A stretch of DNA of 64,000 nt. Origin: Naegleria gruberi. Lineage: Eukaryota. This document shows positions 28,106 through 41,844 of this stretch, one piece after another (the first letter of the stretch is position 1; every line of letters starts with the position of its first letter). The position numbers were made by a program, and so were the translations under genes. Below the pieces are notes generated by a model. That model did no database searches, was not told where the DNA came from, and saw only the letters and a program-made list of their open reading frames with translations. The DNA is taken from assembly GCA_000004985.1 (NCBI GenBank), contig GG738861.1. One strand, 5' to 3'.

Positions 28106-28177
28106 GGGACCATGGTCTAGTGGTATGATTCTCGCTTTGGGTGCGAGAGGCCGTGGGTTCGATTCCCACTGGTCCCC
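28106..28177 (+). tRNA. tRNA-Pro (anticodon UGG)
   Basis: 72-nt cloverleaf: acceptor GGGACCA/TGGTCCC, anticodon stem TCGCT/CGAGA, loop TTGGGTG (anticodon TGG), T-arm GTGGG-TTCGATT-CCCAC, discriminator C, no encoded CCA. Near-identical in architecture to eukaryotic cytosolic tRNA-Pro. A downstream T-run could terminate Pol III. Confidence 0.9.
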
Positions 28178-33483: not shown

Positions 33484-34609
33484 TTAACAACCCAAAACAC
33501 TCTTGGCCTTAATCCAGTGGTTATCACGATCTTCCTTACCATTGAAACCACCATTAATACGTTTAGTACAGGTATCAAAACCAGTTTGATCACATCTATC
33601 AGCATATTGACTCAATCCAGCACGATTCCTATATAGAAATATGATAAATATGTCAAATAATGAATATTCATTAACACTTACCAGAACCAAACAGCAGTAC
33701 GGAATCCAATATCTGGATCAGCAGCTCTAGTTGGATTATTTTCCAAATCAACTCCGAGAGCTTGACCAGCTGCACGATAATTGGCTCTACCAGTAATTTG
33801 AATTGGACCTCTTCCCTTATACTATTGTTCATTGAAATTTAGTATATTAATATAAAGAAAATGAAACTTACTCTAACACCATCACCAGGATAGATATTTC
33901 CCAAATCCTTTCTTCCTTCATAAGCAGCTCCAGAAGCAAATTCAGTAAACCCTAATCAATTAATATTAATATGAATGTTAATTATTAATATTCAGAGTGC
34001 ATAACACTTACAATTCAAATCACCAGATTCATGGGCAATTTGAGCCAAGAAGGCAGTCATTCTACAACATGTACTAATTCCTCCTTCGGCCATGGCACTG
34101 TTCAAAAAAGTAATGTATTGGATAGCCTTTGTACCGGACAAGTTTGGCATGATAGCTCTCAAACTTTGAATGCTAACAGATGCTGAGAATGAAGCATAGC
34201 TCTTAATAGTAACAAAGTTAGAGGCAACATAACCAGAACCAAATGAACCAGAAACAAGATACCTTTTTTTGATTAATCAAACCGGACGGATATGAAATGA
34301 ATGTGAAAGAACAAATAAGAAAGTGGACGGACAGGGTATTTGATTGTTGTAATCGTTCATATACTTTGTTACAGATTCATTGAAAGATTAATTTACATAC
34401 CATGTGTATCCACAACCGTTTTCCATTTGACCACCGAATTTAACTTCAACACCATGAGGGAGTGTGGTCATGAGATTATAATCGGTGCATGGACCATCTC
34501 TCACTTTTAATCCGGATGGAGCATTCACAATCAATGTGTCTCCGTTTTGCAAGCCAAAAACAGCTTGACACAATAATATGAAGGCAATTAAGGCCGTAAA
34601 CAATTTCAT
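33484..34609 (-). CDS. Secreted SH3b-like domain + glycoside hydrolase family 19 (chitinase/lysozyme-type) enzyme; 5 exons (34401..34609, 34012..34262, 33872..33951, 33682..33821, 33484..33628)
   Basis: Signal peptide MKLFTALIAFILLCQAVFG. Then a bacterial SH3-like module (LIVNAPSGLKVRDGPCTDYNLMTTLPHGVEVKFGG...GCGYTW). Then the GH19 catalytic core across four exons: 'GISTCCRMTAFLAQIAHESGDLN', 'YKGRGPIQITGRANYRAAGQALGVDLENNPT', 'AVWFW', 'KRINGGFNGKEDRDNHW'. The four introns are 138, 60, 50 and 53 nt, all GT(A/T)(A/T)GT...AG. Three of them split Trp codons. The spliced product is about 274 aa. This unifies the two partial ORFs 34388..34609 and 33484..33690. Confidence 0.75.
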
Positions 34610-40944: not shown

Positions 40945-41844
40945 ATGAACAAACAAAGTGTTGTCCTCACTTTTGCAGTTATCTGCCTATTCTTCATTCA
41001 TAACCTGAATGCAATTTGGCCTTCTCAAATTATTGACCTTCGCAACTGGAAATTAACACTTCCTGTTGGTGAGCCTGGAGATGCTATGGAAATTAAACAA
41101 CCAACCTTGGATAGATACTCTCTCAATCCATATTTTGGTGCCACTACTAATAACACTGGTGTAAGATTCAGAGTGCTCATGTCCAACGTAACCGTCACAA
41201 CTTCCTCTAATACCAAATATGCAAGAAGTGAATTGAGAGAAATGGATTCTTCAAATCCTAGTAGCACTAAGGCAGCTTGGAATACCACGGTTGGTACTCA
41301 TACCATGATTATCGATCAAACCATTACAAGATTACCAACCACTAGAAAGAAGGTTATTGCTGGTCAAGTCCACGATGCAGATGAATATGTTGTAACCATC
41401 CATTTGGAAGGAACCAAGCTCTATATCAATATCGTAGGAGTTGGAACCACAACCATTTCCCAAAATTATATTGTTGGCACAAGATTCCAAATCAAGATTC
41501 AAGTTAAGAATGGAGTCACAAGTATTTATTACAATAATATGAATACTCCTATTTATTCTATTACAAAGAGTTATAAGGGAGCCTACTTCAAGGCAGGTTG
41601 TTATGCTCAATCTAATTGCGAATTTGAGGGAAGTTTATGTGGAAAATCAAATAATTATGCTGAAGTTGTAATTCATAACTTGACCATTACGCATGAATAC
41701 CCAAGCGTTCAAGCAAGAAATGGAATTCTCAATGGATGGTTTGCAAATATGATTACAAGTGATGGTGTTAGTTTTGGAACCTCTGGTTTGATTCAATTGG
41801 TGTATTCATGTTTGTTGGTTTTCTTATTTGTTATTTTTGCCTAA
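40945..41844 (+). CDS. Secreted, probably GPI-anchored protein with a polysaccharide-lyase family 7 / 'alginate lyase 2' fold
   Basis: 299 aa with a signal peptide. The motif series 'WKLTLPVGEPGD', 'YARSELREM', 'GTHTMIIDQTI', 'IAGQVHDAD', 'YAEVVIHNLTI', 'YFKAGCYAQS' is collinear with the PF08787/PL7 jelly-roll family. The C-terminal Ser/Gly stretch is followed by a hydrophobic tail (LIQLVYSCLLVFLFVIFA), typical of a GPI signal. Confidence 0.55.
   Translation: MNKQSVVLTFAVICLFFIHNLNAIWPSQIIDLRNWKLTLPVGEPGDAMEIKQPTLDRYSLNPYFGATTNNTGVRFRVLMSNVTVTTSSNTKYARSELREMDSSNPSSTKAAWNTTVGTHTMIIDQTITRLPTTRKKVIAGQVHDADEYVVTIHLEGTKLYINIVGVGTTTISQNYIVGTRFQIKIQVKNGVTSIYYNNMNTPIYSITKSYKGAYFKAGCYAQSNCEFEGSLCGKSNNYAEVVIHNLTITHEYPSVQARNGILNGWFANMITSDGVSFGTSGLIQLVYSCLLVFLFVIFA

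Follow-up and report, generated by a model that had tools for sequence, protein, structure and literature searches.

Chitinases and endolysins of the GH19 family have 26 core positions in common and some members cleave both substrates (PMC8547705); an endolysin-type sequence therefore leaves room for activity on chitin. The catalytic glutamates are 9 residues apart in endolysins (E49/E58), whereas the spacing is about 22 residues in chitinases (E67/E89) (PMC8547705). According to the GH19 Engineering Database, endolysin-type GH19 occurs only in phages and the bacteria they infect, LysM and PG_binding_1 are the only modules attached to at least ten endolysin-type sequences, and no ELYS domain carries a chitin-binding CBM (PMC8547705). 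A true endolysin is encoded by a phage, usually has no signal peptide and acts inside the cell together with a holin. The closest characterised relative of the protein described here is C25GH19B of Corallococcus silvisoli, a clade II enzyme secreted by a predator of bacteria; it has been shown to act as a lysozyme and to bind peptidoglycan (PMC9098779).

A GH19 family is also on record for Naegleria. The pangenome of this genus lists orthogroup OG0000047 as 'Lysozyme, bacteria digestion'; the orthogroup belongs to the core of 14 Naegleria genomes, and N. gruberi has 4 copies, N. fowleri strains 1–5 and N. lovaniensis strains 2–6 (PMC9928731). In Swiss-Prot its best match is Endolysin A of mycobacteriophage D29, and its COG is COG3179 (PMC9928731). 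Beyond this listing, the paper is silent on an SH3b module, subtype, introns, transfer origin and cysteines, and it contains no experiment (PMC9928731). GH19 has furthermore been reported in Diplonema (PMC13231604).

Several eukaryotes that meet bacteria have taken up a wall-degrading enzyme, added a signal peptide and kept it. Examples are the NlpC/P60 hydrolase of Trichomonas vaginalis, with a bacterial SH3b-type module beside the catalytic domain (6biq), the GH25 lysozymes that have spread across domains (PMC4241558) and the phage lysozymes of bivalves (PMC5303276). Fungal GH24 and GH25 muramidases likewise carry an SH3-like wall-binding domain beside the catalytic domain (8b2s, 8b2g). The gene described here follows the same logic, but the enzyme is a GH19 instead of an NlpC/P60, GH24 or GH25 protein, and the host lineage is Heterolobosea.

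The window, that is, the whole stretch of DNA analysed, comprises 64,000 nucleotides of Naegleria gruberi contig GG738861.1. The gene lies on its minus strand and has the following features, given in the order of transcription.

33484..34609, minus strand: entire gene, ATG to TAA, with five exons and four introns, 274 amino acids
34401..34609, minus strand: exon 1, 209 nt, putative signal peptide and first two-thirds of the SH3b module
34553..34609, minus strand: putative signal peptide, residues 1–19 (MKLFTALIAFILLCQAVFG), assigned from sequence features, probable cleavage after G19
34202..34546, minus strand: SH3b (Pfam SH3_3) module, residues about 22–90, assigned by Pfam profile, split by intron 1
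34263..34400, minus strand: intron 1, 138 nt, GTATGT..AG, phase 2, splits W70 (TG/G)
34012..34262, minus strand: exon 2, 251 nt, end of the SH3b module, linker and start of GH19
33487..34174, minus strand: GH19 catalytic domain of the ELYS subtype as judged by sequence, residues about 100–274, split by introns 2–4
33952..34011, minus strand: intron 2, 60 nt, GTAAGT..AG, phase 1, splits W154 (T/GG)
33872..33951, minus strand: exon 3, 80 nt, E157 (33943–33941), YEGR (Y164, R167) and G178
33822..33871, minus strand: intron 3, 50 nt, GTAAGT..AG, phase 0, between R180 and Y181
33682..33821, minus strand: exon 4, 140 nt, YKGRGPIQITGRANY including T190 (33794–33792), and AVWFW
33629..33681, minus strand: intron 4, 53 nt, GTAAGT..AG, phase 2, splits W227 (TG/G)
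33484..33628, minus strand: exon 5, 145 nt, C239, INGG (N252), R261, C-terminal C274 and TAA

The coding sequence is 825 nt long and ends with the TAA stop at 33486–33484. Exon 2 carries I132, C135, C136 and the catalytic E148 (34030–34028) as well as a Ser-rich linker (residues about 91–99) that joins the SH3b module to GH19. When the spliced product is aligned with homologues that are intronless or differently spliced, the alignment is free of gaps over all four junctions. The best match of the spliced protein is its N. lovaniensis orthologue with E = 1.6e-111, and the homology of the gene model is therefore far above chance. An independent genomic contig (Logan ERR1078381) matches the 5' flank, exons 1–3 and introns 1–2 at 99.4% identity, with three substitutions and one 3-nt indel. 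The four splice junctions are predicted from homology and splice consensus. The preliminary description had read this locus as a five-exon gene with four spliceosomal introns, three of them splitting Trp codons, and the GT..AG boundaries and the gap-free alignment agree with it; the split tryptophans are those at introns 1, 2 and 4, and all quoted motifs are in place (FLAQIAHES at 141–149, YKGRGPIQITGRANY at 181–195, AVWFW at 223–227 and INGG at 251–254). Intron 3 occupies the only position in common with the N. lovaniensis gene (P0001). We also considered the introns as copies of a mobile 'introner' and rejected this, as the window holds only short AT-rich chance matches to them.

The N-terminus has the features of a classical signal peptide. 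Residues 3–13 form an h-region with a mean Kyte–Doolittle hydropathy of 2.97, AVFG at positions 16–19 precedes the likely cleavage site, and a signal-peptide-like h-region is found in every eukaryotic family member. Hydropathy analysis of the 274-residue protein gave no second hydrophobic segment.

The module that follows scores 28.2 bits against SH3_3 (PF08239; residues 32–87), a margin of only 1.2 bits over the cut-off of 27. The same Pfam family is precomputed for 17 homologues, and a search with an SH3b profile of the family retrieves bacterial SH3_3 proteins with E values down to 4e-10. A search with the single SH3b sequence returned nothing beyond the exon-1 ORF of the same locus. The SH3b domain of the N. 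lovaniensis orthologue is modelled with a pLDDT of 96.3 and seven strands, and its top Foldseek matches are 2kt8 and 2krs (C. perfringens SH3b), with TM scores of 0.6–0.8 across the top matches; PlySb, LytB, PlyPy, lysostaphin and the wall-binding domains of phage endolysins are also matched. The model of the orthologous domain thus has the SH3b beta-barrel, which we take as the predicted fold of the module. By analogy with SH3b in lysostaphin and endolysins (PDB 5leo, 7aqh), the module would bind peptidoglycan or the bacterial wall.

The catalytic domain is recognized far more strongly: residues 138–229 match Glyco_hydro_19 (PF00182) with 57.1 bits and E = 2.9e-15, the cut-off being 25.5 bits. 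E49, E58 and T130 of the SPN1S endolysin map onto E148, E157 and T190, and the aligned core (G183-R184-G185, Q188, N194-Y195, I251-N252-G253 and R261) is invariant or nearly so in the family; over 38 aligned sequences, 43 columns are invariant, the catalytic residues included. E148 and E157 are 9 residues apart, which is the ELYS-type spacing. Clade II enzymes have the same spacing (E79/E88), as seen in the Corallococcus homologue P0074, whose numbering is identical to that of C25GH19B.

The ELYS subtype is defined by I33, R109, G118 and L/Y173, three of the four being accepted (PMC8547705), and three are present here: I132 corresponds to I33, G178 to G118 and R167 to R109, the latter within Y164-E-G-R167, which matches Y106-x-x-R109. 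MAFFT placed a gap that sets R109 on D169; we read this as an alignment ambiguity and take R167 as the equivalent residue. The fourth marker is absent, with position 173 aligning to S233, next to L232. Also absent is the chitinase disulfide C97–C105, which follows Y96 in those enzymes; the corresponding stretch after Y164, EGRKDLGNIYPGDG, contains no Cys. Pfam gives no match to a chitin-binding module (CBM18, CBM5/12 or CBM13) in the window protein. Judged by these residues, the GH19 domain is of the endolysin/lysozyme subtype and not of the chitinase subtype.

Profile, structure and fold comparisons all rank endolysins first. Among PHROG families, phrog_181 ('endolysin') gives the best match (E = 2.2e-54), and the best solved structures by sequence are the endolysins 9ms7 (4.9e-31), 9hnv and 9eoi; endolysins span E values of 5e-31 to 6e-29, and plant chitinases follow below them at about 1e-13 to 1e-15. 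We used the AlphaFold model of the N. lovaniensis orthologue (66% identical, pLDDT 90) for fold comparison. It superimposes on 9ms7 with a TM score of 0.90 and an rmsd of 1.7 Å, and it ranks 9ms7, 9eoi, 4ok7 and 8p8e above all chitinases among 50 PDB GH19 matches with E ≤ 1e-3. Tested on this orthologue, the predicted structure is the bilobal, alpha-helical, lysozyme-like fold of GH19. The protein belongs to the same ELYS subfamily as the phage enzymes (SPN1S gp28, 4ok7; PWe2, 9ms7; the endolysin of Myxococcus phage Mx1; and the prophage protein L005), with the same catalytic triad and, as modelled, the same fold. However, it has no equivalent of the peptidoglycan-binding helical bundle of SPN1S; C25GH19B and clade II have the same compact form without this three-helix insert. 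Both domains exceed their Pfam cut-offs, and the eukaryotic signal peptide, the bacterial SH3b-type module and the compact bacterial-style GH19 core that had been proposed for this protein all stand, the first on sequence features.

The clade is further marked by its cysteines. C135 and C274 are both present in 91% of eukaryote-type and in about 1% of bacterial-type sequences, and the myxobacterial clade II enzymes lack the pair. The pair C136/C239 and the clade-typical pair C41/C66, which lies in the SH3b module, occur in Naegleria and Willaertia. The putative disulfides are C135–C274, C136–C239 and C41–C66, and the common C135/C274 pair supports a single eukaryotic clade.

Orthologues are present in Naegleria lovaniensis and Willaertia magna, and orthologues or paralogues in two further protist assemblies. 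Beyond eukaryotes, the named organisms among the best 120 matches are bacteria, mostly Myxococcota, and the other matches have bacterial-type LysM or PG_binding_1 architectures. The GH19 domain is 62–68% identical to myxobacterial clade II GH19s carrying LysM or PG_binding_1, 63% identical to the 174-residue prophage GH19 L005, 54% to Mx1 and 41% to 9ms7. The gene for L005 immediately follows a set of tail-like ORFs and one small membrane ORF. Its contig has 37% GC and is labelled as a Clostridia MAG; we rejected the idea that it is a mis-binned eukaryotic contig, given this prophage-like cassette. No N. fowleri protein was among our matches, and loss of the family from this species was likewise considered and discarded in view of the copies catalogued in each strain. 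The gene belongs to the same family as OG0000047, whose representative carries the same GH19 core (…INSCCRISAFLAQLAHESGDL…YEGRKDLGNIYPGDG…). None of the observations on which the preliminary description was to be abandoned (no GH19 or SH3b profile match, exon joins that destroy the catalytic motifs, closest homologues among plant or fungal chitinases) was made, and the nearest non-eukaryotic relatives are indeed bacterial and phage proteins.

One of its claims did not hold. The combination of SH3b and GH19 had been called typical of phages and bacteria, yet the fusions we could check are all eukaryotic (five of five SH3b–GH19 relatives with a checkable genomic context). No protein covering both domains was found among the bacterial genome matches or the phage records searched, and the myxobacterial clade II sequences retrieved have either a bare catalytic domain or LysM/PG_binding_1, never SH3b. 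An exhaustive HMMER search in which the SH3b profile was the query yielded 31,340 matches, of which the best 150 are dominated by proteins with 5–17 tandem SH3 repeats and are uninformative on GH19 fusions.

The gene is well integrated into its host. The coding sequence has 40% GC (27% at third codon positions), the window 34% and the introns 18–30%; composition is uniform over the 64 kb, and the neighbours are eukaryotic housekeeping genes (RNase P p30, an M16 peptidase and an aminoacyl-tRNA synthetase). Myxobacterial clade II genes, in contrast, are GC-rich and intronless. Housekeeping neighbours, host-like composition and the N. lovaniensis and W. magna orthologues together argue for an old horizontal acquisition and against contamination, as had been proposed together with the introns. 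The distribution in eukaryotes is patchy and the nearest outgroups are bacterial and phage proteins. A neighbour-joining tree of the GH19 core sets 33 eukaryote-type sequences apart from 87 bacterial-type sequences, with a bootstrap value of 2% and unsupported deep nodes. On the sequence evidence, we conclude that the gene is probably an old horizontal acquisition of bacterial or phage origin; our best guess for the donor is clade II-like Myxococcota or their phages. It is not a phage endolysin in the strict sense of a gene in a phage or prophage lysis cassette, having eukaryotic neighbours, four introns and a putative signal peptide of the ER type. The rival view, that the gene is a contaminant from a bacterium or phage, an artefact of assembly or a pseudogene in decay, has one feature in its favour: a few protists apart, the most similar proteins are those of bacteria and phages. 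Against this, the reading frame is restored only by removing four canonical spliceosomal introns, composition and flanks are those of the host, introns and locus recur in the independent contig, the family is core over 14 Naegleria genomes (PMC9928731) and every catalytic residue and all 43 invariant columns are intact, so that this explanation is effectively refuted.

We consider it probable that the protein is a GH19 lysozyme of the secretory pathway, of the phage-endolysin subtype, which serves a bacterivorous heterolobosean amoeba as a peptidoglycan hydrolase. The N-terminal signal peptide would direct it to the ER and from there to the phagolysosome or the medium, where, as a chromosomally encoded eukaryotic protein, it would act on bacteria from outside, unlike an endolysin. 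The SH3b module would anchor it to bacterial cell walls, and the GH19 domain would cut the glycan strands of peptidoglycan, with E148 as the acid, E157 as the base and T190 positioning the water molecule. Such muramidase activity has been demonstrated in relatives, namely C25GH19B (PMC9098779) and the phage endolysins with PDB entries, and a bacteriolytic function is our prediction for this enzyme; the literature searched contained no biochemical assay of any enzyme of the eukaryotic clade. Lysis would help the amoeba to kill and digest ingested bacteria, a predicted role in feeding or defence. The catalytic domain would have been transferred from bacteria or phages before Naegleria and Willaertia diverged; its nearest relatives are prophage endolysins and the lysozymes that predatory Myxococcota secrete. 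Host composition, a signal peptide, additional cysteines and lineage-specific introns would have been gained afterwards, and duplication would have given rise to a small family.

The alternative that the enzyme is a chitinase, which remodels or opens the amoeba's own cyst wall or attacks fungal prey and uses the SH3b-like module as a general carbohydrate or wall anchor, seems unlikely to us. In its favour, the cyst walls of Naegleria have been reported to contain chitin-like material; our literature search on cyst-wall chitin in Naegleria gave nothing usable. The Pfam family is named 'Chitinase class I', JGI names several homologues 'predicted chitinase', and in a 2026 paper the four GH19 proteins of N. 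gruberi are taken to be chitinases whose catalytic and substrate-binding residues are conserved (PMC13231604). Both GH19 subtypes have subsites −2 to +1 in common, and the documented cross-activity leaves this reading some ground (PMC8547705). What decides for us in favour of the lysozyme is that the chitinase disulfide is absent, the glutamate spacing is 9 and not about 22, and the best sequence, profile and fold matches are all endolysins. The closest characterised relative is a peptidoglycan-binding lysozyme, and the chitin-induced enzyme of the same bacterium belongs to the distant clade I, 37–38% identical to clade II (PMC9098779, PMC10875029). Moreover, the accessory modules found in the clade (LysM, PG_binding_1 and SH3b) are all peptidoglycan binders.

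With the same biochemistry, the enzyme could instead act in the medium as a defence or competition factor that kills or restrains pathogens, competitors or would-be intracellular parasites, much as predatory myxobacteria use the homologous enzyme. A classical putative signal peptide with no visible lysosomal sorting motif or transmembrane segment fits this role, as do the nearest bacterial relatives, which are extracellular predation enzymes (PMC9098779, PMC10875029), the laterally acquired NlpC/P60 hydrolases with SH3b in Trichomonas (PDB 6biq) and the secreted lysozyme TvGH25 reported from the same organism (bioRxiv 10.64898/2026.07.07.735988). The sequence, though, does not separate secretion from delivery to the phagolysosome, and the pH optimum of 4.5–5.0 of the characterised homologue fits the phagolysosome equally well (PMC9098779). 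Since the pangenome authors also file the family under digestion (PMC9928731), we give a purely extracellular role little credence as the main one and favour the digestive lysozyme.

For the architecture itself, we tentatively put forward a eukaryotic invention, although we hold this to be somewhat doubtful: a protist ancestor may have fused a separately derived bacterial SH3b module to the acquired endolysin-type GH19 and braced it with new disulfides. The lysin may then have spread and diversified over Heterolobosea, the two further protists and possibly diplonemids, with modules repeatedly lost or duplicated and introns gained. If true, eukaryotes would here have their first clade of endolysin-type GH19, against the published view that the type is restricted to phages and bacteria.

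The case is solid but largely known, given that the Naegleria pangenome already lists the family as a lysozyme; that a eukaryote captures a bacterial wall hydrolase is a well-documented type of event and opens no long-standing question. For annotation, the analysis sets diagnostic residues that point to a lysozyme against the 'chitinase' labels of several databases and the 2026 paper, and the clade is an exception to the statement that endolysin-type GH19 is found in phages and bacteria only (PMC8547705). With its compact form, SH3b anchor and apparent disulfide bracing, the GH19 lysin is also a candidate antibacterial enzyme, and the family is present in the pathogen N. fowleri too. For Naegleria itself, the finding would mean that a bacterivorous amoeba uses the lysozyme type of phages and predatory myxobacteria, refitted for the eukaryotic secretory pathway and provided with a wall anchor.

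The gene lies on the minus strand, from an ATG at 34609 to a TAA at 33486-33484, and has five exons in the predicted model:

34609-34401, minus strand, exon 1
34262-34012, minus strand, exon 2
33951-33872, minus strand, exon 3
33821-33682, minus strand, exon 4
33628-33484, minus strand, exon 5

All four introns (138, 60, 50 and 53 nt) are of the GT..AG type, with GTATGT or GTAAGT as donor, and the spliced reading frame of 825 nt encodes 274 residues. The protein aligns without gaps over all four junctions with homologues whose genes are intronless or otherwise spliced (top match, E = 1.6e-111). These features bear out the five exons and four introns of the preliminary description. An independent genomic contig (sequencing run ERR1078381) is 99.4% identical over the 5' flank, exons 1-3 and introns 1-2. 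The sequence comparisons confirm the gene as real, with predicted junctions, and the motifs originally quoted are all present: FLAQIAHES (141-149), YKGRGPIQITGRANY (181-195), AVWFW (223-227) and INGG (251-254).

Introns 1, 2 and 4 split the codons of W70, W154 and W227, as had been noticed, and intron 3 is in phase 0. There are only five Trp codons in the gene, three of them interrupted (34402-34401/34262, 34012/33951-33950 and 33683-33682/33628). By rough arithmetic (10 within-Trp-codon sites among ~822 possible), three of four introns in such codons would have a chance probability of the order of 1e-5. Comparison of intron positions places no Naegleria lovaniensis intron within a Trp codon, and a G|G insertion-site preference is only a guess at the cause.

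The Pfam model SH3_3 matches residues 32-87 with 28.2 bits (cut-off 27). Since this score is marginal, the module was checked in three further ways. A precomputed SH3_3 match exists in 17 homologues. A profile of the family's N-terminal module picks up small bacterial proteins with a stand-alone SH3_3 domain (Streptomyces, YraI/YgiM-like; E down to 4e-10) as well as multi-repeat SH3_3 wall proteins. The AlphaFold model of the N. lovaniensis orthologue's module is a seven-stranded barrel (pLDDT 96.3), which in the PDB most resembles SH3b domains of Clostridium perfringens and those domains of lysostaphin, LytB, PlyPy, PlySb and phage endolysins that bind the cell wall. Pfam score, profile and fold thus agree with the SH3b-like module first proposed. 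It is preceded by a predicted signal peptide (residues 1-19, MKLFTALIAFILLCQAVFG) with an n/h/c layout and a mean h-region hydropathy of 2.97; no second hydrophobic segment was seen elsewhere in the protein, and an equivalent N-terminus is present in all eukaryotic relatives, which upholds the claim of a signal peptide.

The closest proteins are heterolobosean, from N. lovaniensis (66% identity, architecture identical in kind) and Willaertia magna (60%), and further close relatives come from metagenome-style assemblies. All five inspected contigs behind the latter are eukaryotic, with genes for leishmanolysin, F-box/LRR, ankyrin, RWP-RK, Arf, GRIM-19, UCH and NPC1. The JGI contigs L003 (8001-8993; sample 3300062347), L047, L048, L004 and L049 are long, AT-rich and intron-poor; in samples 3300062347 and 3300062135, a gene caller for prokaryotes had been used on eukaryotic contigs. 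One GH19 'protein' (P0014) contains a translated 57-nt GT..AG intron, and both samples hold several GH19 paralogues per organism.

Outside eukaryotes, the search for nearest matches led to bacterial and phage GH19 domains, as anticipated. The nearest are Myxococcota domains (62-68% identical, with the match confined to the catalytic half), which stand alone or are fused with LysM or PG_binding_1 and correspond to 'clade II' of the myxobacterial GH19s (PMC10875029). Clade II member C25GH19B is a demonstrated lysozyme that binds peptidoglycan, with catalytic residues E79/E88, a pH optimum of 4.5-5.0 and none of the SPN1S helices (PMC9098779); a Corallococcus relative (P0074) has the same E79/E88 numbering. 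The phage scan is led by the Myxococcus phage Mx1 endolysin (54%), and the top match in the bacterial genome scan is a 174-aa GH19 protein (63%) without a signal peptide. The locus of the latter, L005 (2590-3522), in a GTDB record labelled as an uncultured Clostridia MAG, is a prophage-like cassette of 37% GC; its GH19 gene comes directly after tail-like ORFs and a membrane (holin-like) ORF of 133 aa. This layout is that of a prophage lysis cassette, the closest endolysin-context relative found. A neighbour-joining tree sets 33 eukaryote-type apart from 87 bacterial-type sequences with a bootstrap of only 2%, and thus does not fix the donor lineage. The pair C135 and C-terminal C274, found in 91% of eukaryote-type and ~1% of bacterial sequences, is a rare shared character that supports a single eukaryotic clade. 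In Naegleria and Willaertia there is another pair besides, C136 and C239; both pairs are predicted disulfides, which would suit the secretory pathway.

The combination of SH3b and GH19 had been called typical of phage or bacterial hydrolases. This is not supported: no bacterial genome match reaches upstream of residue 78, and among 50,697 phage records there is none with 80% coverage of either our protein or the relative whose SH3_3 is most canonical, in searches that were not exhaustive for divergent SH3b domains. When endolysin-type GH19 sequences were scanned for SH3_3, only LysM and PG_binding_1 were found on at least 10 sequences (PMC8547705). On present evidence the fusion belongs to the eukaryotic clade; a bacterial donor that already carried it is conceivable.

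The coding sequence has 40% GC (27% GC3), the window 34% and the introns 18-30%; two GC-rich bacterial loci measured have ~62%. The neighbouring genes are ordinary eukaryotic ones (RNase P p30, M16 peptidase, class I tRNA synthetase, RNase T-type exonuclease). Introns, host-like GC and neighbours argue for a domesticated, horizontally acquired gene, as originally proposed, and the readings as contamination or as a pseudogene can effectively be discarded. Only intron 3 is common to the gene and N. lovaniensis P0001. The Willaertia orthologue P0002 (L002, 4001-4924) is intronless, and a JGI protist gene has its intron at yet another position. Two tandem N. lovaniensis SH3b-GH19 paralogues (L001, 6001-7084 and 7576-8677) share a phase 1 first intron within the FLAQ codons, where our gene has none. 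Such differences indicate that introns were gained after transfer and that turnover is ongoing. The second introns of the tandem paralogues lie 11 codons apart (phase 0 after GDGVR, phase 1 in the D codon of RRDLG), reflecting either intron sliding or independent loss and gain after duplication. The gene's introns are not repeat copies: a search with them yielded nothing but short AT-rich chance matches in the window. The GH19-only Willaertia protein P0011 is 81% identical to P0002 save for a clean deletion of 79 residues, exactly the SH3b module and linker, and is a clear case of module loss. Metagenome protein P0005 (437 aa) has two tandem Cys-containing SH3b modules before its GH19 domain; the wall-binding module was thus duplicated in some lineages and lost in others.

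At 40945-41844 (plus strand), 6.3 kb from the GH19 gene, lies an intronless 299-aa ORF with a Pfam Alginate_lyase2 (PL7) match (E = 6e-37), an N-terminus resembling a signal peptide and a hydrophobic tail at the C-terminus. It is a predicted second bacterial-type polysaccharide-degrading enzyme, possibly a second horizontal acquisition targeting bacterial biofilm polymers. RNA gene detection in the 64-kb window gave a single gene, a tRNA-Pro (anticodon TGG; 28106-28177, plus strand).

The GH19 core claimed at the outset is recovered by Glyco_hydro_19 (residues 138-229, 57.1 bits, cut-off 25.5). This family has two subfamilies, endolysins (ELYS) and chitinases, with explicit distinguishing criteria (GH19 Engineering Database, PMC8547705). 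We mapped the protein onto the reference endolysin of phage SPN1S. The catalytic acid, base and water-positioning residue (E49, E58 and T130 in SPN1S) correspond to E148, E157 and T190, and the Glu-Glu spacing of 9 is endolysin-like, as against ~22 in chitinases. ELYS markers I33, G118 and R109 are represented by I132, G178 and R167 (in the Y-x-x-R motif YEGR), and S233 occupies the position of L/Y173; this pattern of three out of four equals that of 10 of 12 characterised endolysins (PMC8547705). The mapping shows neither the chitinase disulfide C97-C105 nor the three-helix peptidoglycan-binding insert of SPN1S, so the domain is compact. The top PHROG family is phrog_181 'endolysin' (E = 2.2e-54), and among solved structures sequence similarity is highest to endolysins 9ms7, 9hnv and 9eoi (E 5e-31 to 6e-29), with plant chitinases at about 1e-13 to 1e-15. 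The full-length model of the N. lovaniensis orthologue (pLDDT 90), our proxy for the fold, superimposes on 9ms7 with a TM of 0.90 and an rmsd of 1.7 A, and endolysins 9ms7, 9eoi, 4ok7 and 8p8e rank above all chitinases. We explicitly assign the domain, from its diagnostic residues and the proxy fold, to the endolysin subtype, correcting the 'chitinase' labels.

The kind of finding is not new, and the preliminary description is essentially right. In a Naegleria pangenome (PMC9928731), the core genome includes orthogroup OG0000047, named 'Lysozyme, bacteria digestion', with mycobacteriophage D29 Endolysin A as top Swiss-Prot match. The orthogroup counts four members in N. gruberi, 1-5 per N. fowleri strain and 2-6 per N. 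lovaniensis strain; its representative sequence plainly belongs to the same GH19 family. A 2026 paper groups four N. gruberi GH19 'chitinases' with those of Diplonema papillatum, lists SH3b as an accessory module and suggests lateral transfer (PMC13231604). Eukaryotic capture of bacterial wall hydrolases is well documented, with GH25 (PMC4241558), bivalve phage lysozymes (PMC5303276) and Trichomonas NlpC/P60 proteins with SH3b domains (PDB 6biq) as examples. Our analysis adds the endolysin-subtype assignment against the 'chitinase' labels, the observation that the SH3b fusion is apparently confined to eukaryotes, the Cys signature of the eukaryotic clade and the pattern of intron turnover.

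The main rival to a bacteriolytic function, a chitinase role in cyst-wall turnover or fungal feeding, would agree with the published labels; set against the endolysin-type core, it seems unlikely. A purely extracellular defence role, which would leave the biochemistry unchanged, is likewise unlikely. The protein probably contributes to feeding on bacteria: it would enter the secretory pathway towards phagolysosomes or the medium, the SH3b module would dock it on bacterial walls and the E148/E157 pair would cut glycan strands, thereby helping the amoeba to kill and digest bacteria.
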